A DNA stretch of 64,000 bases, from assembly GCA_043803385.1 (NCBI GenBank), contig JAZDKA010000009.1:3092-67091 (forward strand), in the 5' to 3' direction. A program made the translations under genes and the position numbers. Shown piece by piece: positions 3,244 through 63,186 of the stretch. Numbering within the stretch: position 1 is the first letter of the stretch; each line of letters opens with the position of its first letter. This DNA comes from Patescibacteria group bacterium. Lineage in GTDB: Bacteria; Patescibacteriota; Minisyncoccia; Moranbacterales; JAKLHP01. The notes beneath the pieces were generated by a model. The model was not told where the DNA came from. It did not search any database and saw nothing but the letters and a program-made list of their open reading frames with translations.

Positions 3244-6200
3244 GTGATTTTTATTATCATGTTTAAAAAAATCGATCCAAAAATGAAATTTCCCGAGGTG
3301 GAAAAAGAGATACTGAAGTTTTGGGAAGAAAACAAGATATTTGAAAAGTCAGTTGAAAAAAATCCTGAGGACAACTCTTTTATATTTTACGAAGGTCCGC
3401 CAACGGCTAATGGTGTGCCGGGGCTTCACCATGTCTTAGCCCGGGCTTTTAAAGATATTATTCCAAGATACAAGACCATGAAAGGCTATCGAGTGGAAAG
3501 AAAAGCCGGTTGGGATACTCACGGGCTTCCGGTTGAAATCCAAGTCGAGAAAGAATTAGGAATCCATCAAAAATCCGAAATTGAAAATATTGTTCCGGGA
3601 AATCCAAGAGAAAGCATCATTGAGTTTAACAAGAAATGTAAAGAATCAGTTTGGAAATTTAAGGATTTATGGGAACAAATGACTAGAAGGATGGGATATT
3701 GGGTGGATATGGAACATCCTTATATTACTTATGAAAATAAATACATTGAATCGGTCTGGTGGGTGATAGCACAAATTGCCAAGCTAAAAACAGAAAAAGG
3801 CGAACCGGTTTTATATCAAGGGCATAAAGTTATTCCCTATTGTTACCGATGCGGAACAGCGCTTTCTTCGCATGAAGTCGCGCAAGGATACCAGAAAGTG
3901 AAAGACAATTCAGTTTTTGTAAAATTTCATTTAAAACTTGGACAAAAGTGGGCGGGGGAAAAATACGAGACAAAAGAATCAGTCTATGCGCTTGTCTGGA
4001 CAACTACGCCGTGGACATTGCCTGGCAATGTTGCATTAGCAGTTAATGAAAACATTTCTTATACCGCATTAAGAATAAATGGCATAAAAGAGCTGATAAT
4101 CTTAGCTAGTGATCAAGTTAAGAATATTCTAAGCGATAAAGATATTGAAATTATTCATAATGATATCAAGGGGAAAGATTTATTGGGTCTTGAATATGAA
4201 CCGCTTTATAAAACTAATAATACTGATAAAAAAGCTTATTATGTAATTTCCGGAGATTTTATCACCACTCAAGAAGGAACGAGCATTGTCCATATTGCTC
4301 CGGCTTTTGGGGAGGATGATTCTAATGTTGGTAGGGAAAACGATTTGCCAACACTTTCTACTGTTGATATTGAGGGAAAAATAATTAAAGGAATGAATAT
4401 TCCTGGAGAAGGTATTCCCGTAAAGAAAAAAAATGACAAAAATAAATATGAAGTTGATAATTTAATCATTGAAGATTTAAAGAATAGAAAATTATTATTC
4501 AAAGAAGAACTTTATGAGCATGATTATCCTTTCTGCTGGAGATGTGATACCCCTCTCATTTATTATGCCAAACCGTCGTGGTTTGTCCGAATGAGCGCAT
4601 TCAGAGAAATACTCGAAAAAAATAATCAAAATATAAATTGGATTCCGGAATATATCAAAGAAGGAAGATTTGGCGAGTGGCTTCGCGATGCCAAAGACTG
4701 GGCGATTTCAAGAGACCGATATTGGGGAACCCCGCTTCCGATTTGGAAATGTAAAGAATGCGGGAAAATAAAAGTTGTTGAATCAGTCGATGAAATAAAA
4801 GAACAGCTGGGAAATCCGAATAAATTATTTTTAATCCGCCACGGAGAAGCGGAGAATAATATTGAGGAAATTATTAGTTGTTTCCCCGAAAAAATCGATT
4901 ATCATCTTACTCCGAAAGGAAAAGAACAAATTAAAACAGTAGCTGAGCAATTTAGAAGTGTAAAGATTTCTGCTATATATTCCTCTCCACTTAAGCGCGC
5001 ACAAGAAACAGCCGAGATTATTTCCCAGATTACTGGAGCTGAAGTTATTATTGATGATCGTATCAGGGAGATGGATCTTAACGGGTTAAATGGAATAAAA
5101 ACAGATGATTTCAGAAAAATATATCTAAATGAAATACTTAATTTGAATACCGATGAACATGGAGTAGAAGGTTATAATCAGGCAGCAGAAAGATTAAAAT
5201 CATTTGTTAGCAATATAAACGAAAAATATCAAAGTGAGAATATAATAATTATATCACATGGAAATCCGCTGAAAGTTTTAGAAGGAATATGCAATGGCAA
5301 GAAAATAGAAGAATTAAAAAATGATACATATCTTGGAAAAGGAGAAATTAGAACCGTATATTCCAAATTATTTGATTTGCATAAACCATATATTGATGAA
5401 ATAACTTTCAAATGCGAATGCGGAGGAGAAATGAAAAGAGAATCGGAAGTGATGGATGTTTGGTTTGATTCCGGCTCAATGCCGACCGCCCAATTCCATT
5501 ATCCATTTGGCGCATCAAAAGAAGACAAGGAAAAAATCGAAAGTGGTAAATTCTATCCGGCGGATTTTATTTCCGAAGCGATTGATCAGACTAGAGGATG
5601 GTTTTACACTCTGCATGCAATTTCTACCCTCTTAAATGCGAACAAAAAAGTTCCGACCGGGCTTGCCTTTAAAAATGTAATTTGTTTGGGTCATGTTCTT
5701 GACGCACAAGGAAAGAAAATGAGCAAATCCAAAGGGAATATTATTGATCCGATGGAAGTGATGGATAAATACGGAGCCGATATACTCCGCTGGATGTTAT
5801 ACACGATAAATCAGCCCGGACTTCCTAAAAGATTTGATATCAAGAAAATGAACGAAATCATGAATCGGGTTTTCCGAATGCTTTGGAATTCGTATTCGTT
5901 TTTTGTGATGTATGCGAATATAGATAAATTCAAGCCAGTGAACAGTGAACAGGGAACAGGGAACAGTAAAAATTTATTAGACAAGTGGATTTTGTCAGAG
6001 CTTCAGGTTTTAATAAAAAATGTTGACGAAAAATTAAATAAATATGATATTTATAATGCTGGAAATTTAATCGAAAAATTCATTGATAATCTTTCCAACT
6101 GGTATATCCGCCGAAGCAGAAAGAGATTCTGGAAAAGCGAGAATGACGCAGATAAAAATGAAGCCTATCAAACTTTGCATTATGTCCTAGTTGAACTTTC

Positions 6201-6957
6201 AAAATTAATGGCGCCGTTTACGCCGTTTATCTCCGAAGAGATTTATCGAAATCTAGTTGCCCCTCACCCCAACCCTCTCCCAGAGGGAGAGGGGGGTGTT
6301 GTGTCTGTACATCTAGCTGATTTTCCCAAAGCGGATGAAAGCTTGATTGATGAGAAATTGAATGGGGAAATGAAATTGGTTCGCAACATAGTAACTCAAA
6401 ATCTAGAAGTGCGTGCAGCATCAAGAATAAAAGTTCGTCAGCCGCTAAATACGTTATTGATTTCTGGATATGAATTTAATAAAAATTTATTGGAAATTAT
6501 TTCTAATGAAGTAAATGTAAAAAAATGTGTTGTATCAGATGAGTCTGGCATTGAAGACGCAGAGAAAAAGGGATATATAAAGAGAGTTTTCTTTGATGAA
6601 TCTATCCAACAAGGAAAAAGATATTCTATTCAGGAGCCAATTAAACCAAGTCAGGCAGGCGTTAGGTTAAGCACTGCTTTAGACACCGAAATTACCGAAG
6701 ACCTGAAGCTTGAAGGGCAAGCTCGGGAAATTATTCGCCATATCCAGGAAATGCGGAAAGAAGCAGGCTTTGAAGTTGACAACCGGATAAAAATAGGATA
6801 TATTGGAATGTCTAAGGTTTTTGATAAATTTAGTTCCTTGATAACCAAAGAAACTTTGGCTGAAAATATGGATCTTGAAATTATAGAAGAATGTGATCTT
6901 AAGAAAGAATTTAAGATCGATGGAGAAAAATTAGAACTAAGTATCAAAAAAATATAA
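3244..6957 (+). CDS. ileS: Isoleucyl-tRNA synthetase carrying an inserted histidine-phosphatase (PGAM-like) domain and a 20-aa palindromic mini-insertion
   Basis: HIGH-like PTANGVPGLHHV, TTTPWTLP editing motif, CWRC zinc knuckle, KMSKS. Residues ~528-715 (LFLIRHGE...IIISHGNPL) match histidine-phosphatase branch-1 motifs. They lie between the WKCKEC and FKCECG cysteine pairs. Confidence 0.9.
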   Translation: MIFIIMFKKIDPKMKFPEVEKEILKFWEENKIFEKSVEKNPEDNSFIFYEGPPTANGVPGLHHVLARAFKDIIPRYKTMKGYRVERKAGWDTHGLPVEIQVEKELGIHQKSEIENIVPGNPRESIIEFNKKCKESVWKFKDLWEQMTRRMGYWVDMEHPYITYENKYIESVWWVIAQIAKLKTEKGEPVLYQGHKVIPYCYRCGTALSSHEVAQGYQKVKDNSVFVKFHLKLGQKWAGEKYETKESVYALVWTTTPWTLPGNVALAVNENISYTALRINGIKELIILASDQVKNILSDKDIEIIHNDIKGKDLLGLEYEPLYKTNNTDKKAYYVISGDFITTQEGTSIVHIAPAFGEDDSNVGRENDLPTLSTVDIEGKIIKGMNIPGEGIPVKKKNDKNKYEVDNLIIEDLKNRKLLFKEELYEHDYPFCWRCDTPLIYYAKPSWFVRMSAFREILEKNNQNINWIPEYIKEGRFGEWLRDAKDWAISRDRYWGTPLPIWKCKECGKIKVVESVDEIKEQLGNPNKLFLIRHGEAENNIEEIISCFPEKIDYHLTPKGKEQIKTVAEQFRSVKISAIYSSPLKRAQETAEIISQITGAEVIIDDRIREMDLNGLNGIKTDDFRKIYLNEILNLNTDEHGVEGYNQAAERLKSFVSNINEKYQSENIIIISHGNPLKVLEGICNGKKIEELKNDTYLGKGEIRTVYSKLFDLHKPYIDEITFKCECGGEMKRESEVMDVWFDSGSMPTAQFHYPFGASKEDKEKIESGKFYPADFISEAIDQTRGWFYTLHAISTLLNANKKVPTGLAFKNVICLGHVLDAQGKKMSKSKGNIIDPMEVMDKYGADILRWMLYTINQPGLPKRFDIKKMNEIMNRVFRMLWNSYSFFVMYANIDKFKPVNSEQGTGNSKNLLDKWILSELQVLIKNVDEKLNKYDIYNAGNLIEKFIDNLSNWYIRRSRKRFWKSENDADKNEAYQTLHYVLVELSKLMAPFTPFISEEIYRNLVAPHPNPLPEGEGGVVSVHLADFPKADESLIDEKLNGEMKLVRNIVTQNLEVRAASRIKVRQPLNTLLISGYEFNKNLLEIISNEVNVKKCVVSDESGIEDAEKKGYIKRVFFDESIQQGKRYSIQEPIKPSQAGVRLSTALDTEITEDLKLEGQAREIIRHIQEMRKEAGFEVDNRIKIGYIGMSKVFDKFSSLITKETLAENMDLEIIEECDLKKEFKIDGEKLELSIKKI

Positions 6958-13988: not shown

Positions 13989-14239
13989 AAACCAATATTT
14001 TTGATAGTTCATCCCCCACCACTTTTTCTTGTAAATAGTAATTTATGGAAAAATTTAGTCTAACTAGGAAATTTCGAGTGAAAGTGGTGGGGGACAAGAA
14101 ATAAAAATAAATAAAAAACAAAAAACTAAAGACAAAATTCTTTGTCTTTGCCCTTCGAGGGCAAACAATAGCAAATCAAATCCCGAGAAATCGGGATTTT
14201 TGCTTGAAATAACTTACTTATTAAGCTATACTATCAGAT

Positions 14240-16562: not shown

Positions 16563-17690
16563 ATGAAAATTGGCATTGATGCTTCGCGGGCTTTTATCAA
16601 AAACCGCACTGGCATTGAAGAATATTCCTATCAAGTAATTAAGAACCTGATGAATAAGTTAGAAGAACATCAGGTTATTTTGTATATAAGGCGGAGTCAA
16701 AAGTCAAAAGTCGAAAGTCAAAAGCTTCCGGAAAGCTGGAGGATAAAAGTTATAAAATGGCCGTATTTATGGACTCAAGTCGGATTATCGCTGGAATTAT
16801 TTTTCCATACAGTAGACGTCTTATTTATTCCAGCGCATACTGTTCCCTGCATACATCCTAAAAACACAATAGTGACAATTCATGGTTTAGAATATGAATT
16901 TTGTCCTAAGGCATATTCATTTTGGGCAAGATTATATATGCGCTGGTCGATAAAAAATTCCTGCAAATGGGCAAAGACTATTATAGCTGTTTCTAATAAT
17001 ACCAAGAATGATTTAGTTAAATTATATAATGTTCCAGAAGAGAAAATAAACGTAGTATATGAAGGAACAAATTTAATTAAAAATTTAAAAATCAAAAATC
17101 AAAATGACAATTCAAAATTCAAAATTGATAAATACTTATTGTTTATTGGCAGATTAGAAAAGCGAAAAAATATTTTGGGAATAATTGAAGCTTTTGAAAT
17201 ATTAAAAGAAAAATATAAAATTCCGCATAAGTTAGTTTTAGCAGGTGAACCCGGATACGGATATCAAAATGCAAAAACCAAAATGCAAAAATCAAAATAT
17301 AGGAATGAAATTATTTTCAATGGATTTATTGGGGATGAGGAAAAATATAACTTACTGAAAAATGCGGATGTTTTTTTATTCCCCAGTTTTTATGAGGGCT
17401 TTGGATTGCCGATTTTAGAAGCGCAAAGTGCCGGCGTGCCGGTCGTAACGTCAAATATATCTTCGATACCCGAGATTACAGGAGCTAAGCTCCTTGAGCT
17501 CAAGGAGCTTAGCTCCTGTTCGGCAATATTGATAAATCCTAACAAACCAGATGAAATAGCCAAAGCGGCATACAAGTTTATTTCCGATGAAAATTTGAGA
17601 AATGATATAATAAATAAAGGGTTTGAGAATGTGAAAAGATTTAGTTGGGAGAAATGTGCAAATGAAATTAGCAAGCTAATTTTATGCTAA
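16563..17690 (+). CDS. Glycosyltransferase family 4 (with in-frame repeat and palindrome insertions)
   Basis: KIGIDASRAF N-terminus. EGFGLPILEAQSAGVPVVTS. Carries (GTCAAA)n at 16696-16727 and a 36-bp perfect palindrome at 17481-17516. Confidence 0.8.
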   Translation: MKIGIDASRAFIKNRTGIEEYSYQVIKNLMNKLEEHQVILYIRRSQKSKVESQKLPESWRIKVIKWPYLWTQVGLSLELFFHTVDVLFIPAHTVPCIHPKNTIVTIHGLEYEFCPKAYSFWARLYMRWSIKNSCKWAKTIIAVSNNTKNDLVKLYNVPEEKINVVYEGTNLIKNLKIKNQNDNSKFKIDKYLLFIGRLEKRKNILGIIEAFEILKEKYKIPHKLVLAGEPGYGYQNAKTKMQKSKYRNEIIFNGFIGDEEKYNLLKNADVFLFPSFYEGFGLPILEAQSAGVPVVTSNISSIPEITGAKLLELKELSSCSAILINPNKPDEIAKAAYKFISDENLRNDIINKGFENVKRFSWEKCANEISKLILC

Positions 17691-36072: not shown

Positions 36073-36939
36073 ATGATAGTTAGCACTATAGAAAAATTGA
36101 ATTTATTCACTGTAAAGACAAAAGCTAAGGTAAAAGCCGATGTTATTTTAGGCGATTGCTTCAATGCCTTAAAAAATATGCTGGACAACTCCGTAGATCT
36201 CATTGTTACATCACCTCCGTATGCCGATCAGAGGAAAGACACTTATGGGGGGATTAGCCCCGACAAATATGTTAAGTGGTTTTTGCCAATAACAAAAGAG
36301 TTATTGCGTGTTCTACATCCGAAAGGAACATTCATTTTGAATATTAAAGAAAAAGTTGCAGATGGTGAACGTCATACCTATGTCATGGAGCTAATTATTG
36401 AAATGAGAAAACAGGGCTGGCATTGGACAGAAGAATTTATTTGGCACAAAAAAAATTGCTTTCCGGGCAAGTGGCCCAACCGTTTTCGTGATTCTTGGGA
36501 GCGACTTTTGCAATTCAACAAAACAAAAGATTTTAATATGTATCAAAACGAGGTAAGAGTGCCTATGGGTAATTGGGCAAAAACTCGTCTGAAAAATCTT
36601 AGCGAAACGGACAAACGAAGAGACAACTCAAGGGTGGGCAGCGGTTTCGGGAAAAACGTATCTAATTGGGTAGGTCGCGAATTGGCTTATCCTACGAATG
36701 TGCTTTCAATGGCTACGGAGAGCTCTAATAAAAAACACAGCGCAGTTTTTCCGAAAGAACTACCGAGCTGGTTTATTAAGCTTTTTACAAAACCCGGCGA
36801 TGTGGTTCTCGATCCATTTTTGGGCTCTGGTACGACTTCAGTTGCGGCATTTCAGCTTGATCGTAACTCTATAGGTATTGAAATACAAAAGGAGTATCAC
36901 GAACTTGCTGTCGAAAATATTAACGAACAAACAAAATAA
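36073..36939 (+). CDS. Beta-class DNA methyltransferase (SPPY motif IV first, FxGxG motif I last; likely N4-cytosine, possibly N6-adenine)
   Basis: DLIVTSPPYADQR near N-terminus. DVVLDPFLGSGTTSVAA near C-terminus. Confidence 0.85.
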   Translation: MIVSTIEKLNLFTVKTKAKVKADVILGDCFNALKNMLDNSVDLIVTSPPYADQRKDTYGGISPDKYVKWFLPITKELLRVLHPKGTFILNIKEKVADGERHTYVMELIIEMRKQGWHWTEEFIWHKKNCFPGKWPNRFRDSWERLLQFNKTKDFNMYQNEVRVPMGNWAKTRLKNLSETDKRRDNSRVGSGFGKNVSNWVGRELAYPTNVLSMATESSNKKHSAVFPKELPSWFIKLFTKPGDVVLDPFLGSGTTSVAAFQLDRNSIGIEIQKEYHELAVENINEQTK

Positions 36940-36940
36940 T

Positions 36941-37699
36941 ATGAAAAAACTAAACTACGGAAAACTTAATACATTTATTGCATCTGATGTAATAAAGCCA
37001 TTCTACGAGATAAGGCTTAATCGGCTTGAATCTGCAAGGCTGTCCGTTATTTCAAAACGAAAAAATCCCTACTTGTTCAAAGCAAAAAATATTGAAACTG
37101 CGGGCGATTTAGCGAAGAGCATTCTTGACGCGTTTTTATCCTCCCAAGAGGAAACGATTTTCGGAGATCTCATGGAAAATCTTGCTATTCATGTCTGCCA
37201 TGAGGTATTTAAGGGCAAGAAAGCTGAGGAAGGAAAATATCGCAGTGTTGATTTAATCTTTGATCGTGATAAGAAAACTTACATTGTTGGTATCAAATCT
37301 GGACCAAATTGGGGCAATTCTGATCAAGTGAATACAATGAAAAGAAATTTGAAAATTGCTAAAAAGTTTCTTCGTGCTGAACTCAAGAAAAGTAACGTCG
37401 TTTCTGTAAATGGATGTATTTACGGGCGAGACAATAATCCGCACAAAGTGAACAAAGACCCCGACCTTAGCTATTATAAAATCTGTGGGCAATCTTTTTG
37501 GGAACTGATCTCTAGTGATGACCAATTGTACAAGAAGATAATCCAACCACTCGATAAAGAGGCAAAGAAAAGGGACGATGTATTTAAGAAATTGTATGTA
37601 AAGAAAATTAACGAAATGACCAAGGATGTCGTTAATCTTTTCTACACAAAAGACTGTTTGGATTGGGATAAAATAATTGACTATGTCTCAAAAAAGTAA
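36941..37699 (+). CDS. Putative type II restriction endonuclease (cognate of 36073 methyltransferase)
   Basis: Starts 2 nt after methyltransferase stop. No methyltransferase/other motifs. Weak PD...xK-like VDLIFD...IVGIK. Confidence 0.4.
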   Translation: MKKLNYGKLNTFIASDVIKPFYEIRLNRLESARLSVISKRKNPYLFKAKNIETAGDLAKSILDAFLSSQEETIFGDLMENLAIHVCHEVFKGKKAEEGKYRSVDLIFDRDKKTYIVGIKSGPNWGNSDQVNTMKRNLKIAKKFLRAELKKSNVVSVNGCIYGRDNNPHKVNKDPDLSYYKICGQSFWELISSDDQLYKKIIQPLDKEAKKRDDVFKKLYVKKINEMTKDVVNLFYTKDCLDWDKIIDYVSKK

Positions 37700-41951: not shown

Positions 41952-42030
41952 GCTACTTGTTAAGAATAACTTAATTTTGAGCTAAAGAAAAGAGCCAGAC
42001 ATCGAAGAGTGCAGCTCTCTCAAATATTTA

Positions 42031-42137
42031 GGACTTACGCATTTGTCTCTGCCAATCCCGCTGCTCCGGCGCGATAACGGACTATTTTATAATCGCGCCT
42101 CCGAAAAGCGTATTGCCATAGCCAAACGCGTAAGCCC
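42031..42137. repeat. GC-rich ~107-nt structured repeat element, copy 1
   Basis: GGACTTACGCATTTG...GGCGCGAT-loop-ATCGCGCC...CAAACGCGTAAGCCC. Homologous copies at 43365..43470 and 63075..63182 with compensatory changes. Confidence 0.8.
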
Positions 42138-42159
42138 TGTATTATTGTAAGTTGAAATA

Positions 42160-42765: not shown

Positions 42766-43356
42766 TCAAATTTTGTCTTTGGCGGCAGAATTTCTCGACA
42801 CAATCAAGAGGATAGCAGCCACAGTCAGCGCGATAACCATTATGGAAATATTGGCTGATTTCTGGCTTGAAATTTCTGAAATCCTGGAAATATTATAGGC
42901 GGAGTGTACTAAAAAAGCAGGAACAAGCCCGAAGAAAAATTTGAAGATGGCGTTATTTTTTTGTTTCCCGATCGAATAGGCAATTATTGCAGATGTCGAA
43001 GCATGAATTATCACTATTCCGGCAGTTCCCAAGAAGTCCGGGGAAATTCCTTTGGTAAAATTCCAATAGGCGAAGAAAAGCTCCAGCACGGAAAATCCCA
43101 AACCAAAAAACAAAGAATTAGAAACAATAGTTCTCTCTTCAGAGATTCTTTTTATCGGATTGGAAATAAAAGCATACTTGCTAAGCTCCTCGATTAAAAT
43201 TACAACAAAAAATAGATAATTCAGTGAATTCAATACTCCGTAAACGGATTCCGTGCTGATGGCTGATGGAGCAAATAAAATCAGCGCTATAATTTCCAGC
43301 ATCAAAGCGCCAATTGCTCCGAATATTCCGAGTAAAAATGACTGGATAAACTTCAT
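42766..43356 (-). CDS. Intramembrane metalloprotease, PrsW/CPBP-like
   Basis: Polytopic. EELSK (EExxK) and HSAYN (HxxxN) motifs. Confidence 0.45.
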   Translation of the reverse strand: MKFIQSFLLGIFGAIGALMLEIIALILFAPSAISTESVYGVLNSLNYLFFVVILIEELSKYAFISNPIKRISEERTIVSNSLFFGLGFSVLELFFAYWNFTKGISPDFLGTAGIVIIHASTSAIIAYSIGKQKNNAIFKFFFGLVPAFLVHSAYNISRISEISSQKSANISIMVIALTVAAILLIVSRNSAAKDKI

Positions 43357-43364
43357 TTATTTCA

Positions 43365-43470
43365 GAACTTACGCATTTGCCTCTGCCAAGGCCGTAGCTC
43401 TGGCGCAATGCCGGACAATTCTATAATTGCGCCTCCGAAAACGGCTTGCCATAGTCAAATGCGTAAGTCC
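43365..43470. repeat. GC-rich structured repeat element, copy 2 (compensatory variant)
   Basis: GGCGCAAT...ATTGCGCC and CCGT...ACGG replace GGCGCGAT...ATCGCGCC and CGCT...AGCG of copy 1. Confidence 0.8.
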
Positions 43471-43475
43471 TATAG

Positions 43476-45902
43476 TTATTTTTCTATTTCTATTGCCAGC
43501 TTTTTTGAATCAATAAGCCCTATTTCTTCGGCATGGGAAAGATTTTTGAGATCACTGGAAATTTTTTTAACGAATTCACTTTCAGTCCCGATAGCCAGTT
43601 TTTTAAATGATTCCCCGAGTTTTATGCCTTTTTCGGCCTTAATTCTTCGAATTTCAGCTATTGTTTCCAGAATTATTTTTCCATTCTCCAGATAATTTTT
43701 ACTTTCGAATTCTTTATTTTCCTTTGGCCAAGCGCTTATATGGATTGAAATTGAGTTATCGCTACTAATGAAGAATTGCTGATAAATTTCTTCGCTAACA
43801 TGGGGAAGCATCGGAGCAAAAAGTTTTATCAAAGTGCTTATAGCTGAATATAAAGTAAATTGAGCAGATAATTTTATTTTTTTATCTTCCCCGTAAAGCC
43901 TTCCTTTTATAAGCTCGATATAATTGTCAGCGAATTTTATCCAGAAAAAATGTTCCAGAAGAGTTTTGGCTTTGGCGAATTCATAATTTTCAAACTGCTC
44001 GGTTACGTTTTTGATGAGTTCTTGGAGTTCGGCTAATATCCAAGCATCCGCTTCACATAAATCTTCCGCATTAATAAAAGTTTTTCGATTATAATCTTCG
44101 AGATTCATCATCACAAATCTAGTAGCATTCCATAATTTAGTCAGAAGTTTCTGTCCGGCTCGCATATCATCTTCACTGAAGCGGAGATTCATTCCCAGCG
44201 TTGCTCCGCAGGACCAGAAGCGAAGGGCATCAGCGCTGTATCTTTCAATCATACTCTCGGCGGTTATGAAATTATTAAGCGATTTGCTCATCTTTTCTCC
44301 ATTTCTTGCCAGCCCCCAGCCGGAAATCATTACATTTTTCCAAGGAATAGAATTAGTATTGAGATGCGATTTTACCAAAGTATAAAAAAGCCAGGTTCTG
44401 ATTATTTCAAATCCCTGAACCCGGAGGCTCATGGGATAAATATTTTTTTCATCTTTTTCTTTCCAATGATTATTAATAAGCGGAGTAGTGGAAGAAGTAG
44501 CCCAGGTATCCATTACTTGCGTTTCTCCTTTAATCTTTTTGCTTTGGCATTTTGAGCAAACCGGATTTTTTGGAAGATTTTCCCGAGGATCAACCGGAAG
44601 CTCATTATCTTTAGGCAAGATTATTTCTCCGCAGTTTTCGCAGTACCAAATTGGAAAAGGAACTCCGTAAAACCTATCGCGGGAAACGCACCAATCCCAT
44701 TTGAGTCCGTCAATCCAGTTGTCCAGCTGGACTTTCATAAATTTCGGATACCAATTCAATTCTTCTCCCCGTTTTTTGAACGCGTCCTTTATGTCCAAGA
44801 TCTTAATAAACCATTGCGGAGAAACAAAAAAATCTATCGGATGTTTGCATCGTTCATGAATATTCAATGTGTGGATAATTTCCATTTTATTTTTCAGAAG
44901 TCCTGATTCCTCCAAATCTTTAATTATCTCTTCGCGGGCATTGCTAAGTTTCATACCTTGGTATTTTCCTCCTTTTTCATTTACTCTTCCGCTTTTATCT
45001 ATAATTAGCTTAGTTTCCAGCTTATCTGCCTTCCATTTTTCAATGTCTTCCGTGTCTCCCCAGGTGCAAACCATCATAAGTCCGGTACCCTTGTCCATTT
45101 CAACGTCTTTGCTGGTTTTAACCGGTATTTTTGCTTCCATTAAAGGAGAAATGGCATATCCTCTGGCATATTTTTTGTATCGAGAATCATCGGGATTGAC
45201 ATATAAAGCCACGCAAGCAGGAATTAATTCTGGCCTGGTTGTGGAAATTATGGCCGGATCTCCATTTTCAAACTTGAATTCAATATCATACATCAATGAT
45301 TTTTCTTCTTTATCTTCAAGATCTGCCTGGGCCAGCGATGTCTGGCACTGGGTGCACCAAAAAGTAGGAGATTCTTCGCGATAAACTCTTCCCTTTTTAT
45401 ACAAATCAATAAAAGATCGCTGGGATATTTTTTGGGAAAGCGGGCTGATGGTGGAATAAAGAAGAGACCAGTCAACGCTTAAGCCCAAGCTCTTCCAAAT
45501 TTCTTCATATTTTTTCCCGCCTTCTTTTGTTTCCTTAAGGCAAAGCTCGACGAATTCTTTCTGGGTAATTTTTGATTTGTCCACTTTGTATTTCTTTTCG
45601 ACAAATCTTTCGGTCGGAAGCCCATTGTCATCAAAACCCATCGGATAGAAAACATTCTCGCCTTTCATCCGGTGGTAGCGGATAATAATTTCCGCCTGGG
45701 CATAGCTCATAGCGTGTCCAGTATGGAGCGAATCGGAGCTGATATACGGCGGGGGAGTATCGACGGAAAAAACAGGTTTTTTTGAATTCTCATCAAATTT
45801 ATAAATTCCTTCTTTTTCCCAGAAATCCTGCCATTTTTTTTCGGATTTTTTCGGATCGTAATTTTTTGGAAGTTCTTTATTCATATGGGTTAATGTTAAC
45901 AA
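43476..45902 (-). CDS. valS: Valyl-tRNA synthetase (compact form)
   Basis: HTGHA (HIGH), TTRPE editing-domain motif, KMSKS. No C-terminal coiled coil. Confidence 0.8.
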   Translation of the reverse strand: MLTLTHMNKELPKNYDPKKSEKKWQDFWEKEGIYKFDENSKKPVFSVDTPPPYISSDSLHTGHAMSYAQAEIIIRYHRMKGENVFYPMGFDDNGLPTERFVEKKYKVDKSKITQKEFVELCLKETKEGGKKYEEIWKSLGLSVDWSLLYSTISPLSQKISQRSFIDLYKKGRVYREESPTFWCTQCQTSLAQADLEDKEEKSLMYDIEFKFENGDPAIISTTRPELIPACVALYVNPDDSRYKKYARGYAISPLMEAKIPVKTSKDVEMDKGTGLMMVCTWGDTEDIEKWKADKLETKLIIDKSGRVNEKGGKYQGMKLSNAREEIIKDLEESGLLKNKMEIIHTLNIHERCKHPIDFFVSPQWFIKILDIKDAFKKRGEELNWYPKFMKVQLDNWIDGLKWDWCVSRDRFYGVPFPIWYCENCGEIILPKDNELPVDPRENLPKNPVCSKCQSKKIKGETQVMDTWATSSTTPLINNHWKEKDEKNIYPMSLRVQGFEIIRTWLFYTLVKSHLNTNSIPWKNVMISGWGLARNGEKMSKSLNNFITAESMIERYSADALRFWSCGATLGMNLRFSEDDMRAGQKLLTKLWNATRFVMMNLEDYNRKTFINAEDLCEADAWILAELQELIKNVTEQFENYEFAKAKTLLEHFFWIKFADNYIELIKGRLYGEDKKIKLSAQFTLYSAISTLIKLFAPMLPHVSEEIYQQFFISSDNSISIHISAWPKENKEFESKNYLENGKIILETIAEIRRIKAEKGIKLGESFKKLAIGTESEFVKKISSDLKNLSHAEEIGLIDSKKLAIEIEK

Positions 45903-46286: not shown

Positions 46287-46606
46287 ATTCGGCCAGGGTT
46301 TTTCATATAGGCAAGGATTCTTTGGGCTTGCCCCGCACTAATTTTGTGCTGGCTGAAGCCAAATAGTGCTTCGCACTTGCACAAAGTTAGTGCGGGGTTG
46401 ACAACAATTTAAAAATACTCAAAAACACTGGCTTTTTTACAAGGGTGTGCTATAATAGATCTAATTCATCCCCACACCAAATTTTTAAAGTTTCTAATAA
46501 TTGTTGGTCTCGCAGTATAATCATCTGCTTTTTATTAAATACTGTAGAGAAAAATAGAATTTTGGTGTGGGGATAAAGGGGAATTAATTAATTAATATAA
46601 AAAACT

Positions 46607-49300: not shown

Positions 49301-50467
49301 ATGAACGCGATATTAAAGAAAAAACAATTAGGGCAATTTTTCACCAAAAATGCAGAATATATTCTGAAAAATTTAGGTAAATATATAAAAGGGAAAAATG
49401 CCGTTGATCCTTTCGCTGGTAACGGGGATTTAATAGAATGGGCGAAAGAAAATGATGCGAAAACCATTAAAGGTTTCGATATTGATTCCAGATACATTGA
49501 TAACAAAAAAGTTTTCAAGAATGACAGTATAAAAAATGTCAAAAAATATAACTTTGTGATAACTAATCCTCCTTATTTGAATGTGAATAAGGCGAATAAG
49601 GAAATCAAAAAAGAGTATTTTGGAAGCAATGACTTTGAAGATTTATATCATATTTCCTTGAATTCGATAATGAATAGTGAGGAGGGGATAGCTATTGTTC
49701 CAATTAATTTCCTATCAGCTCAAAATTCAAAAAAAATCAGAAATATATTCTTTTCCAAATTTAGAATAGTCGAGATGAATTATTTCAAACATCAAGTTTT
49801 TCCAGATACTACTTATAATGTGATAGCTTTTTATTATCGGAAAAAAGACAATGCTTTCGACAATGGTTTTACAATCAAAACTCACATTTATCCAGAAGGA
49901 AAAAAGATTGACATAGAATTATGTAAAAATCATGATTGGTCAATTGGCGGGAAAATTTTTAAATTAATAAAAAATCAAAAGAATTTTTTGGGCGTGAAAA
50001 GACTTACAGAAAAAGATATAGCAAGTAAAAAGGGAAATATTAAAATCAAAGCAGCTTATAATCATGTTAAATGCAAAAAGGAATTCGCTGTTTCGAAAGA
50101 TATTTATGATGCTATAAAATCTAATATCATATTGTTAAAAGCGATAGATAGCGGTTCAGAAAAAGGAAAAATTGCCCTAGAAAATATTCGGGAATACGGA
50201 GTCGATTGTTTGGTGAGTAAAGAAACATCGAGGCATATGATTTATTTAGTGCTGGAAAATAAAATTTCTATTTCCGATCAAAAGAATATCATCAATTCTT
50301 TTAACAAGGAGATTAATAAATTACGCGAAGATTATCTCTCTCTTTTCCTTACTAATTATAGAGATAAAGATAGGAAAAGAATCAGTTTCGATTTCGTTTA
50401 TAAGTTTATTAATTATTTATATTTTAACAGCTTAAATTATGCTAAAAGACAATCAGTATTACTTTAA
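49301..50467 (+). CDS. Gamma-class N6-adenine DNA methyltransferase (TaqI-like) with C-terminal target-recognition domain
   Basis: GQFFTK (motif X), DPFAGNG (motif I), ITNPPY (motif IV). Confidence 0.85.
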   Translation: MNAILKKKQLGQFFTKNAEYILKNLGKYIKGKNAVDPFAGNGDLIEWAKENDAKTIKGFDIDSRYIDNKKVFKNDSIKNVKKYNFVITNPPYLNVNKANKEIKKEYFGSNDFEDLYHISLNSIMNSEEGIAIVPINFLSAQNSKKIRNIFFSKFRIVEMNYFKHQVFPDTTYNVIAFYYRKKDNAFDNGFTIKTHIYPEGKKIDIELCKNHDWSIGGKIFKLIKNQKNFLGVKRLTEKDIASKKGNIKIKAAYNHVKCKKEFAVSKDIYDAIKSNIILLKAIDSGSEKGKIALENIREYGVDCLVSKETSRHMIYLVLENKISISDQKNIINSFNKEINKLREDYLSLFLTNYRDKDRKRISFDFVYKFINYLYFNSLNYAKRQSVLL

Positions 50468-51347
50468 ATATTCATTGAATCATCCTGAGCCAATTTGGGA
50501 TGAGTACTTTTATCCCTTTCTGGAGTCAATAGTAAAAAAGAAAGAATATAAAAATATTCTAGATCTTGAAGATTATATCTCAAAAATGAGTAGCAAATTG
50601 ACAAATAAAGAAATTAAGAAGCTACTGGGCTTGCTTAAATGCAAAGGATGTGAAAAATCATACTTTGCTTTCTTTTTAAGAACATGTGATTTGAGTGTTG
50701 CAGAAATTACTGATCAGAAATATTACGACTCATCAGAACGCATTAATGCTACACGAAAAGCATTAGGAATTTACAAAAAGGAAAGAGGTACACCCAAAAC
50801 TGATAAATGTTCATTGCAAGCATATAACGATGCGCAAACTGCCAAAAGACGTAGTGACGCAGGAGAAAAGAAGGTAATTAAATTATCTGGATTGTCAATG
50901 GCATCAGATTTGTCTGGCTTGGACAATAAAATAGCAAAAATTAGTAAAGGTAGCGGAAAATTTAAAATCAAAGCCATTAAAAAATTATTTGGAATAAAAT
51001 TCAAGTTTAGCAAAAAAGACAAAGTGCCAGACTGCATTTTTAAGATAAAAGATAGAGTTTTCATACTTGAGGCCAAGCATGTAAATGGGCAAGGTGGCGC
51101 ACAAAATTCATCAATTAGTGAGTTGGTATCTATATTGGAACTCAAAGAAAAAAATCCTAAAATATTTTATATTGCTTTTCTAGACGGGTGTTATACAAAA
51201 TATTTAACTGTTTCCAAGTCTAATAAAGACGGAACGATGCCTGAAAAACAACTCTATAGAATTGAAAAAACTTTAAATAAAAATGAGAGCAATTACTTTT
51301 TGAATACAGCAGGATTCGTTCAGTTCATGAAAGATTTAAAAAAATAA
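50439..51347 (+). CDS. Putative type II restriction endonuclease (PD-ExK)
   Basis: PDCIFKIKDRVFILEAK = PD-x12-E-A-K. Overlaps methyltransferase stop. Confidence 0.5.
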   Translation: MLKDNQYYFKYSLNHPEPIWDEYFYPFLESIVKKKEYKNILDLEDYISKMSSKLTNKEIKKLLGLLKCKGCEKSYFAFFLRTCDLSVAEITDQKYYDSSERINATRKALGIYKKERGTPKTDKCSLQAYNDAQTAKRRSDAGEKKVIKLSGLSMASDLSGLDNKIAKISKGSGKFKIKAIKKLFGIKFKFSKKDKVPDCIFKIKDRVFILEAKHVNGQGGAQNSSISELVSILELKEKNPKIFYIAFLDGCYTKYLTVSKSNKDGTMPEKQLYRIEKTLNKNESNYFLNTAGFVQFMKDLKK

Positions 51348-59982: not shown

Positions 59983-60116
59983 CATTGATTATTTTAATTT
60001 TTTTGATATAATGAGTTTGTTTTGACAATTTAATATTATTCCGCGGTAGCCCCGACGCAAGGTCGGGGTCCCGACTGAAACGTCGGGACTCAATGGTCCC
60101 AGCACCAAACTTTTGC

Positions 60117-60188
60117 TCCGGCGTAGCTCAATGGTAGAGCAGTTGACTGTTAATCAATTGGTTGTAGGTTCGAATCCTACCGCCGGAG
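60117..60188 (+). tRNA. tRNA-Asn (anticodon GTT)
   Basis: TCCGGCG/CGCCGGA acceptor. TAGCTCAATGGTAGAGC D-arm. Anticodon loop CTGTTAA. G73. Confidence 0.8.
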
Positions 60189-60311
60189 CAAAAAGTTGGT
60201 ACGGGATAAGGCTTCGCTAAGGTTGAACCTTAGCGGCGTAAACAGGGCTCATAAAAATTCCAAAAATAAAATTAATAATCAGTTTATTTATTTTTTAATA
60301 GCTTAAAAAAT

Positions 60312-63004: not shown

Positions 63005-63031
63005 AAAACCCGCCTCATCGGCGGGTTTTTT
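63005..63031 (+). terminator. Rho-independent terminator after cspA
   Basis: AAAACCCGCC-TCAT-CGGCGGGTTTTTT. Confidence 0.8.
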
Positions 63032-63074
63032 GGAATAGATTTTTATTCCTCTTTGTAATAAGATTATATTGTTA

Positions 63075-63182
63075 GGACTTGCGCATTTGCCTCTGCCAAT
63101 CCCGCTGCTCCGGCGCGATAACGGACTATTTTATAATCGCGCCTCCGAAAAGCGGATTGCCATAGCCAACCGCGCAAGTCCC
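63075..63182. repeat. GC-rich structured repeat element, copy 3
   Basis: Near-identical to copy 1 with compensatory outer-stem changes (ACTTGCGC...GCGCAAGT). Confidence 0.8.
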
Positions 63183-63186
63183 GATT

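Follow-up and report, generated by a model that had tools for sequence, protein, structure and literature searches.

Three copies of a hairpin-forming element of about 107 nt occur in a 64,000-nt stretch of a Patescibacteria metagenome-assembled genome (MAG; contig JAZDKA010000009.1, positions 3,092 to 67,091; in the following called the window). They probably represent a non-autonomous mobile palindromic element, i.e., selfish DNA in the manner of miniature inverted-repeat transposable elements (MITEs) or REPINs, which so far appears confined to a small clade of Patescibacteria. This interpretation is based on the occurrence of several copies with high similarity within one genome, their presence or absence at orthologous sites, and their location in tiny permissive gaps beside unrelated genes and in mixed orientation; one decayed copy and one assembly break inside a copy add to it. 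The original prediction, made from the same DNA, had placed the three copies correctly and had considered a cis-regulatory 5'-leader RNA, a small RNA family or a mobile palindrome akin to RPEs or MITEs. The last of these is favoured by the evidence presented here, while the leader is not borne out.

Copies in the window and their orthologous sites

With a degenerate pattern of 26 nt, copies 1–3 were the only matches in the window, all on the + strand, and no match appeared in 100 shuffles; re-scanning of the window with covariance models (CMs) yielded no further copy. The three copies (Table 1) can be aligned nearly without gaps and are 83–94% identical to one another (column identity 87–92%). 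Their GC content of 0.50–0.56, compared with 0.31–0.42 for the window, agrees with the earlier description of a GC-rich element in an AT-rich genome. Across the family, the element has a length of about 105–112 bp and is non-coding; manual inspection revealed no open reading frame (ORF) common to all copies.

Table 1. Copies of the element, their apical cores and adjacent native signals
Feature	Sequence	Position	Strand	Remarks
Copy 1	window	42031–42137	+	CM span 42029–42140; 132.6 bits on +, 61 bits on −
Copy 1, apical core (conserved)	window	42061–42110	+	8-bp GC stem, 16-nt loop with invariant CGGAC, CCUCCGAAAA; 74.7 bits with core model R3
Copy 2	window	43365–43470	+	CM span 43363–43473
Copy 2, apical core (conserved)	window	43395–43444	+	68.6 bits with core model R3
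Copy 3	window	63075–63182	+	CM span 63073–63184
Copy 3, apical core (conserved)	window	63105–63154	+	same sequence as core of copy 1
Copy 4 (c4)	L024	1438–1549		112.6 bits; full copy; ENA contig with RsmH identical to that of L004
Copy 5 (c5)	L013	6570–6671		between stop of 185-aa gene and its terminator; CM match near 385-aa gene
Copy 6 (c6)	L017	4277–4382		13 nt past stop of peptidyl-prolyl isomerase (PPIase) gene; identical in four samples
Copy 7 (c7)	L015	11972–12073		orthologous place to c6; core degraded (37 bits, z −2.7)
Native hsp20 terminator-like hairpin with U-run (GAGAGAGCUG...GGCUCUUUUCUUU)	window	41981–42020	−	kept in relatives (aligned with L007 and L011; hairpin and U-run match); just downstream of copy 1 on − strand
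Motif TTTTTTGGAATAGATTTTTA...TTGTAAT, probable promoter of 385-aa gene	window	63026–63059	+	kept in all relatives; copy 3 sits downstream
cspA intrinsic terminator (CCCGCC-loop-GGCGGG-T6)	window	63005–63031	+	upstream of copy 3; equivalent hairpin in relatives

The genes of the window are overwhelmingly located on the + strand, except for a minus-strand block at 38.8–45.9 kb, where copies 1 and 2 are found. Copy 1 lies 22 nt past the stop codon of hsp20 (− strand) and 80 nt ahead of the VanW start, antisense to both genes. Copy 2 fills the spacer between the stop codon of the valyl-tRNA synthetase (ValRS) gene at 43476 and the start of a PrsW-like gene at 43356, with 5 nt and 8 nt remaining on the respective sides, and is again antisense to its two neighbours. 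Copy 3 follows cspA and the cspA terminator and ends 5 nt ahead of the annotated start codon (ATG 63187) of V1804_01190, which encodes a conserved hypothetical protein of 385 aa with an N-terminal membrane anchor; here the element is in the sense orientation. Distances of 5–80 nt to the next start codon, as originally given, were thus found again (80 nt for VanW, 8 nt for the PrsW-like gene and 5 nt for the 385-aa gene).

In related contigs whose ValRS is 79–80% identical (L007–L011), the gene order ValRS–PrsW–Hsp20–VanW is kept, and no copy was found in them with either covariance model when filters were turned off. At the site of copy 2, the ValRS–PrsW spacer of these contigs comprises 3–9 nt vs 119 nt in the window, the difference being essentially the element. 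At the site of copy 1, the relatives contain about 30 nt past hsp20, followed by the terminator hairpin and by a AAAATTRAGYTATTCTTA box, which is conserved. Both of these are retained in the window, and copy 1 is located between the hsp20 stop codon and this conserved terminator, which makes it an insertion into the 3'-untranslated region (3'-UTR). As to the site of copy 3, a motif TTTTTTGNAATAGATTTTTA...TTGTA is found in five related lineages about 25–45 nt ahead of the start of the 385-aa gene. The spacer between the cold-shock-domain (CSD) gene and the 385-aa gene amounts to 96–114 nt in L015, L017 and L020, where the CSD gene lies directly 5', vs 205 nt in the window; the motif is present in the window as well, with copy 3 between it and the ATG, and no element exists at this site in the relatives. 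From these sequence comparisons, the empty orthologous sites together with the retained native signals indicate that copies 1–3 are lineage-specific insertions next to pre-existing expression signals and not ancestral leaders.

The 5'-leader reading fails, because both features which define a leader, conserved position and fixed sense, are missing: relatives are without the element at all three sites, the orientation to the adjacent genes is mixed (copies 1 and 2 antisense, copies 3–7 sense), and copy 1 belongs to the 3'-UTR of hsp20.

Four extra copies were obtained from related metagenomic contigs (Table 1), giving a total of 7 distinct copies at 6 sites. The pattern employed for scanning metagenomes was specific to the GC-rich subfamily. 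It produced one true match, in the JGI contig L004, which stops inside an element right after rsmH, as is to be expected since repeats break assemblies; five other matches were due to chance and occurred in GC-rich coding repeats (L001–L003, L005, L006). For c4, the TAG at the 5' edge is also the stop codon TAG of rsmH, and at the same site of a 79%-identical relative (L026) the gap is occupied by unrelated AT-rich sequence. This gap in L026 contains a different AT-rich, imperfect palindrome of about 105 nt (6091–6223) with repeated TCTCGAAAATTAT, and an AT-rich hairpin of 83 nt is present one gene further (6612–6694); elements may have landed repeatedly in the gap after rsmH, or a copy may be present there in fully eroded form.

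Copies c5–c7, all of them diverged, were identified with CMs close to the 385-aa gene of other lineages. Copy c5 is absent at its position from L014, L015 and L017, and native terminators persist beside copies 1 and 5. The PPIase gene and the 185-aa gene overlap in L013 and L014, so that the site of c6 and c7 is empty there. The degraded core of c7 would be consistent with dispensability of the element to the host. Downstream of c6 and c7, an extra sequence of about 140 nt (L017, 4383–4524; L015, 12074–12212), which is absent from L013 and L014, carries the motifs CCCAGTAG...CTACGGGG...CTACTGGG; the insertion at this place was therefore larger than the element itself. When the core model R3 was applied to 215 kb of sequence, no core-only copies were detected, either at the ends of insertion sequences (IS) or beside a gene.

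Insertion points are situated 0–23 nt past stop codons or 5–8 nt ahead of start codons. The additional members follow rsmH, the PPIase gene and the 185-aa gene, and one precedes the gene for a cytoplasmic FAD oxidoreductase. Of the proposal that each copy lies directly 5' of a gene for an exported protein, the neighbours and distances in the window were correct; the orientation is inconsistent and the other members stand by unrelated genes.

Searches outside this group of contigs were negative. Two pattern scans of 185,579 GTDB species genomes gave a single chance match, in a GC-rich gene of Anaerolineae (L012), and no match was obtained with viral contigs (two scans) or with phage genomes and plasmids (blastn). 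Full-text searches of the literature gave no mention of MITE-like or REPIN-like elements for Patescibacteria or the candidate phyla radiation (CPR). Several known types of element were considered and discarded: an attC-like integron site, since the conserved R boxes at the base of the stem are absent; the heat-shock elements CIRCE and ROSE, which fit neither in position nor in sequence; and a composite transposon with copies 1 and 2 flanking prsW–hsp20, since this gene order exists in the relatives in the absence of the elements.

Fold, covariation and the apical core

On either strand, copies 1–3 fold into one long hairpin, with RNA free energies of −39 to −57 kcal/mol and z scores of −5.0 to −6.8; none of 200 shuffles was as stable. 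Folds of single-stranded DNA (ssDNA) are likewise stable on both strands. The outer stem, ACTTACGCATTTG/CAAA(C/T)GCGTAAGT, is followed by an internal helix, CTCTGCCAAT/ATTGCCATAG, with C·U and C·C 1x1 mismatches, then by a CGCT/AGCG helix and by the inner stem GGCGCGAT/ATCGCGCC; the segment UCC-GAAAA is unpaired. This arrangement of helices, mismatch and unpaired segment had been recognized in the original prediction, apart from the apical loop, which measures 16 nt instead of 15 nt.

Two parts of the hairpin can be distinguished. The apical module of about 46 nt consists of an 8-bp GC stem (GGCRCGAU/AUCGYGCC), the 16-nt loop with an invariant CGGAC and a subsequent U-run, a 3-nt bulge, and the tail CCUCCGARAA. 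The basal stem of 25–31 bp is variable in sequence, with pairing retained. Between subfamilies, identity reaches 71–80% in the core (46 nt), whose GC content is 0.48–0.54 in every copy and whose loop sequence CGGAC never varies; for the arms, identity is 32–58% and GC content ranges from 0.61 (c3) down to 0.15 (c6 and c7). In c6, where the GC content of the arms is 0.15, an AT-rich stem of about 30 bp is nevertheless perfectly paired. The ends of the element are alike only within the GC-rich subfamily (copies 1–4).

Covariation was evaluated with an alignment of 7 sequences, i.e., copies 1–3 and the four from related contigs. Changes on both sides had occurred in 18 of the 32 stem pairs, with 35 doubly changed cells vs 3 which were changed on one side. 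Paired cells amounted to 90.6%, compared with 33–45% when the partners were slid by 1–3 columns, and the observed values were matched in none of 500 shuffles. A model-based CM alignment of 4 sequences contained 11 double and no one-sided changes. In the window copies, the paired substitutions were G-C to A-U in the inner stem, U-A to G-C in CAAU/AUUG, and A-U to G-C in the outer stem of copy 3. Three paired substitutions were reported by RNAalifold; the change from CGCU/AGCG to CCGU/ACGG in copy 2 contributes two more, which are hidden by the gapped alignment. All those named previously, including the ones in CCGU/ACGG of copy 2 and in the outer stem of copy 3, are real in the alignment. Selection for the hairpin, as had been postulated, or at least its maintenance, is supported by the covariation, which is strong with the four added copies.

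Part of this pairing may have a mechanical origin. The orthologous copies c6 and c7 differ in two stem pairs by transitions on both arms, although the core of c7 is decaying, and this suggests that upkeep of arm pairing could be due in part to templated correction within palindromes.

G·U pairs are rare, and A·C mismatches, which correspond to G·U on the other strand, are about as rare, without strand asymmetry. The constraint thus looks symmetrical between the strands, which agrees better with a palindrome at the DNA level, or with an element serving in either sense, than with an RNA made from one strand. The GC-rich copies fold better on the − strand by 6–12 kcal/mol, and no strand difference exists for copies 5–7. 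G·U vs A·C mismatches do not favour one strand, since the counts are small and roughly balanced and copies 5–7 show no difference. A K-turn at the 3-nt bulge was rejected owing to the lack of tandem G·A pairs, and a conserved small ORF behind the minus-strand GGAGG was rejected as well, since the ORFs vary from copy to copy.

Alternative explanations and proposed mobilisation

An improbable alternative is a functional structured RNA module which has been multiplied in the genome, either as a family of small RNA (sRNA) genes or as a portable mRNA element. Its long stem would present the apical motif, and the unpaired, C-rich CCUCCGA, which resembles an anti-Shine-Dalgarno sequence, could bind Shine-Dalgarno (SD) sites or a protein. 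Strong covariation, combined with conserved nucleotides in loop, bulge and tail, is classically regarded as the mark of a functional RNA; in addition, the GC content of the core has stayed at about 0.5 where the arms are eroded to 0.15, the hairpins are of very high stability (z −5 to −11), all copies point the same way with respect to the main gene strand, and c6 and c7 are kept at an orthologous site. However, a promoter or terminator could not be accommodated, as copy 2 fills a spacer which comprises 3–9 nt in relatives and c4 begins at a stop codon. Scans revealed no promoter-like or terminator-like signals within or beside the copies, none is conserved in or outside the element, and the TATAAT in the loop of the window copies is not kept in copies 5–7. 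Without space for signals and without conserved ones, a free-standing sRNA gene is unlikely. Transcription by the host would produce + RNA at some sites and − RNA at others, and no enrichment of G·U is seen on either strand. The element is also missing at orthologous sites of close relatives, besides the decay of the c7 core. Membership in a known RNA family, proposed as a check by covariance search, was not found: Rfam 15 at the gathering threshold gave only tRNAs and no match on any copy, and no family matched at E ≤ 10 across copies 1 and 2 or at E ≤ 1 at the loci of copies 4–6. A weak partial overlap of copy 5 with BTnc060 (28.9 bits, gathering threshold 228.9) was far below threshold.

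A conventional MITE with terminal inverted repeats (TIRs), derived from a DDE-type IS (e.g., IS630/Tc1-like with TA target; compare RUP, Correia and ERIC) whose transposase binds these repeats, is likewise improbable. The size of 107–112 bp and the whole-length hairpin are like those of RUP, ERIC and Correia; the ends in the lineage of the window constitute inverted repeats of 13–15 bp (GGACTTRCGCATTTG/CAAAYGCGYAAGTCC), and the consensus can be read as TA-GGAC...GTCC-TA. Against this, the flanking dinucleotides (TA/TG, CA/TA, TA/CG, TA/GC) do not match in any of the four full GC-rich copies, and in copies 5–7 the termini are unrelated while the centre is conserved. A uniform orientation is not shown by symmetric TIR elements, and neither the window nor about 215 kb of related loci contains an IS with such ends.

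A host DNA site, either a palindrome which is bound or extruded (e.g., for nucleoid, replication or recombination proteins) or a generic bidirectional transcription barrier in intergenic gaps, would be in keeping with the symmetrical constraint, the stable ssDNA folds on both strands and the uniform orientation to the main gene strand, yet is very improbable, since no T-run (U-tract in the RNA) follows the hairpin 3' on either strand, a terminator scan was negative, native terminators are still in place beside copies 1 and 5, the relatives manage without the element at the same sites, and the copies are patchy and lineage-specific.

Several points weigh against a mobile palindrome, too. The element is conserved in its apical core and not at its termini, the reverse of what is known from TIR-MITEs and REPINs, and such a pattern would also be expected of a functional RNA. 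The known family is small (7 distinct copies, 6 sites), and the retention of c6 and c7 at one orthologous site in two lineages means that at least some copies persist vertically. Copies at unrelated places, which had been named as an observation that would speak for a MITE, were indeed found; none of the 7 is inside a gene, and no unambiguous target-site duplication or other direct repeat could be identified. No transposase of any kind was detected among the ORFs of the window (Pfam) or among the genes called in the related loci (about 215 kb); specifically, no PF01797-type protein (RAYT/Y1) is present in the window or the related loci, and no TnpA or TnpB is encoded near any copy. Finally, the insertions share one orientation: 6 of 6 independent events are + when compared with the majority gene strand of the respective contig (two-sided p about 0.03), and this applies also to copies 1 and 2 within the minus-strand block. 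Such uniformity could just as well be due to a gene-like element that sits on the leading strand. The direction of replication was deduced here from gene-strand bias only; GC and AT skews follow the coding strand and are thus unusable for determining the replication strand.

As the means of mobilisation, an HUH/Y1-type enzyme which recognizes the apical module in its folded state, on DNA that is single-stranded or extruded, is favoured tentatively; overall, this step is less likely than not. The preference for ssDNA and an HUH enzyme derives from termini which are not conserved between subfamilies, from the lack of a clean duplication, from the left flank, which is mostly T-TAG, and from the uniform orientation; each of these four arguments is weak taken singly. 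The left flanks are TTTAG, TTCAG, GTTAG, TATAG, ATTAG and TCTTG, at 6 sites only, and the TAG could belong to the element itself; at the empty-site junctions of copies 1 and 4, TAG is already present.

According to this model, an enzyme acting in trans, comparable to IS200/IS605 TnpA or to a RAYT, would bind the folded apical module on ssDNA or extruded DNA, and copies would land in the few permissive gaps of a compact genome, i.e., after a stop codon, between stop codon and terminator, or just ahead of a start codon. There they would be co-transcribed passively with adjacent genes, in one sense or the other, and the mRNAs would carry a hairpin of very high stability. Decay of the mRNA or initiation of translation may incidentally be altered by the hairpin, as the distance from the end of the copy to a start codon is only 5 nt in one case and 8 nt in another; such an effect would be a side effect and not the reason for the existence of the element.

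Two further-reaching proposals, of which one or the other holds with only a small likelihood, emphasize the core. Either CPR/Patescibacteria possess an undescribed hairpin-guided mobility, with the apical stem-loop as recognition module, any long basal stem completing the substrate and strand-specific insertion 3' of T-TAG, or the CCUCC-bearing module is a portable RNA device which is delivered into mRNAs of a regulator-poor genome. The element would be of greater interest if its core defined such a new hairpin-guided transposition system or portable RNA device.

Patescibacteria have tiny, tightly packed genomes, which are generally regarded as repeat-poor. A hairpin element spreading into gaps of a few bases would therein mark recent genome dynamics of these uncultivated organisms. 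It could also be a cause of contig breaks in Patescibacteria assemblies, as one related contig ends in a copy, and it should provide a lead towards its mobilising enzyme. The pattern of a fixed core and free arms would, if true in more genomes, define the substrate rules of this enzyme. For annotation, it follows that these hairpins should not be labelled as leaders or riboswitch candidates of adjacent genes for exported proteins.

Other features of the window and comparison with known systems

Several other palindromic sequences were noticed in the window. A perfect palindrome of 42 nt (ACAGGAGCTAAGCTCCTTGAG/CTCAAGGAGCTTAGCTCCTGT) at 17478–17519 lies within the coding sequence of a GT4 glycosyltransferase (ORF 16563–17690), which is unusual inside a gene. 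Two other intergenic hairpins of about 110 nt (13999–14107 and 46465–46577) have similar ends, TCATCCCC(C)AC(A)CC...GGTG(T)GGGGA, and interiors which do not align; they may represent a second family of palindromic elements in the same genome. Between the start region of the ValRS gene and the HU gene (46331–46397) there is a GC-rich hairpin with arms of 19 nt (95% complementary) and without a match in Rfam. An inverted repeat of 25 nt (84% complementary) at 60099–60205 brackets the tRNA at 60117–60188 and would extend the acceptor stem of the precursor.

An ORF of 1237 aa (3244–6957) encodes a class-I aminoacyl-tRNA synthetase with an IleRS-like set of domains and a histidine-phosphatase domain (His_Phos_1, residues 528–691); the latter interrupts the catalytic domain, separating its two halves. 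Two restriction-modification (R-M) gene pairs are present (36073–37699 and 49301–51347): one consists of an N6_N4 DNA methylase and an EcoO109I-family endonuclease, and the other of an Eco57I-like methylase and a Tsp45I/PstI-like endonuclease. About 11 kb (approximately 46.9–57.9 kb), including the second R-M pair, are missing from the otherwise syntenic contigs of relatives, where the HU gene adjoins TsaD and sigma-70; this points to a lineage-specific insertion or rearrangement in the window.

Among known systems, the REPINs are doublets of repetitive extragenic palindromic (REP) sequences which are mobilised by Y1 transposases of the RAYT type (Bertels and Rainey 2011, PMC3116915; PMC3337134). 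Like the element described here, they are extragenic, about 100 nt long, non-autonomous and multicopy in the genome and form one long hairpin, which is preserved by compensatory changes; target duplication is lacking in REPINs and could not be identified here, and a short motif is located 5' of the hairpin (GTAG in REPINs, T-TAG here). They differ in being built from two inverted REP units with a conserved stem and a variable spacer or loop, whereas the present element shows the opposite pattern, with conservation in the apical loop region and a variable stem. In addition, it is a single whole-length hairpin whose halves are not self-complementary, and its 5' flank is T-TAG or CAG, without GTAG. 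REPINs are known from Proteobacteria and similar groups, and no report from Patescibacteria was found.

The ssDNA transposons of the IS200/IS605 family and their ORF-less derivatives, the palindrome-associated transposable elements (PATEs), resemble the proposal made here insofar as folded hairpins and not duplex termini are recognized. Their insertion takes place 3' of a short specific sequence and creates no duplication; the T-TAG flank of the element, at its 6 sites, may be likened to this sequence. The orientation of IS200/IS605-family members is reportedly biased with respect to replication, a finding attributed to Ton-Hoang et al. in Cell, 2010. Unlike the element, which is one palindrome with a single apical hairpin, IS200/IS605 and PATEs have two different subterminal hairpins and no whole-length palindrome.

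MITEs of the types RUP, ERIC, Correia (NEMIS) and RPE share with the element the single long hairpin (about 100–150 bp) and the intergenic location in either orientation; they are co-transcribed with their neighbours and can alter mRNA stability. In contrast to the element, they possess conserved TIRs, and TA duplications occur in RUP, ERIC and Correia; a similarity in sequence was not detected. In-frame insertion into genes, as known from RPEs, was not observed for the element. Cis-regulatory leaders, such as riboswitches, ribosomal-protein leaders and RNA thermometers, also have covarying helices and conserved unpaired nucleotides, and two copies of the element end, in a comparable manner, less than 10 nt from a start codon; unlike the element, a leader is found upstream of homologous genes in different species and always in the same sense. 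In summary, the element would appear to work most like REPINs and hairpin elements of the IS200/IS605 type and to look most like the RUP, ERIC and Correia MITEs. New aspects are the conservation pattern, in which the apical core is fixed and the arms are free as long as they pair, and the phylum of the host.

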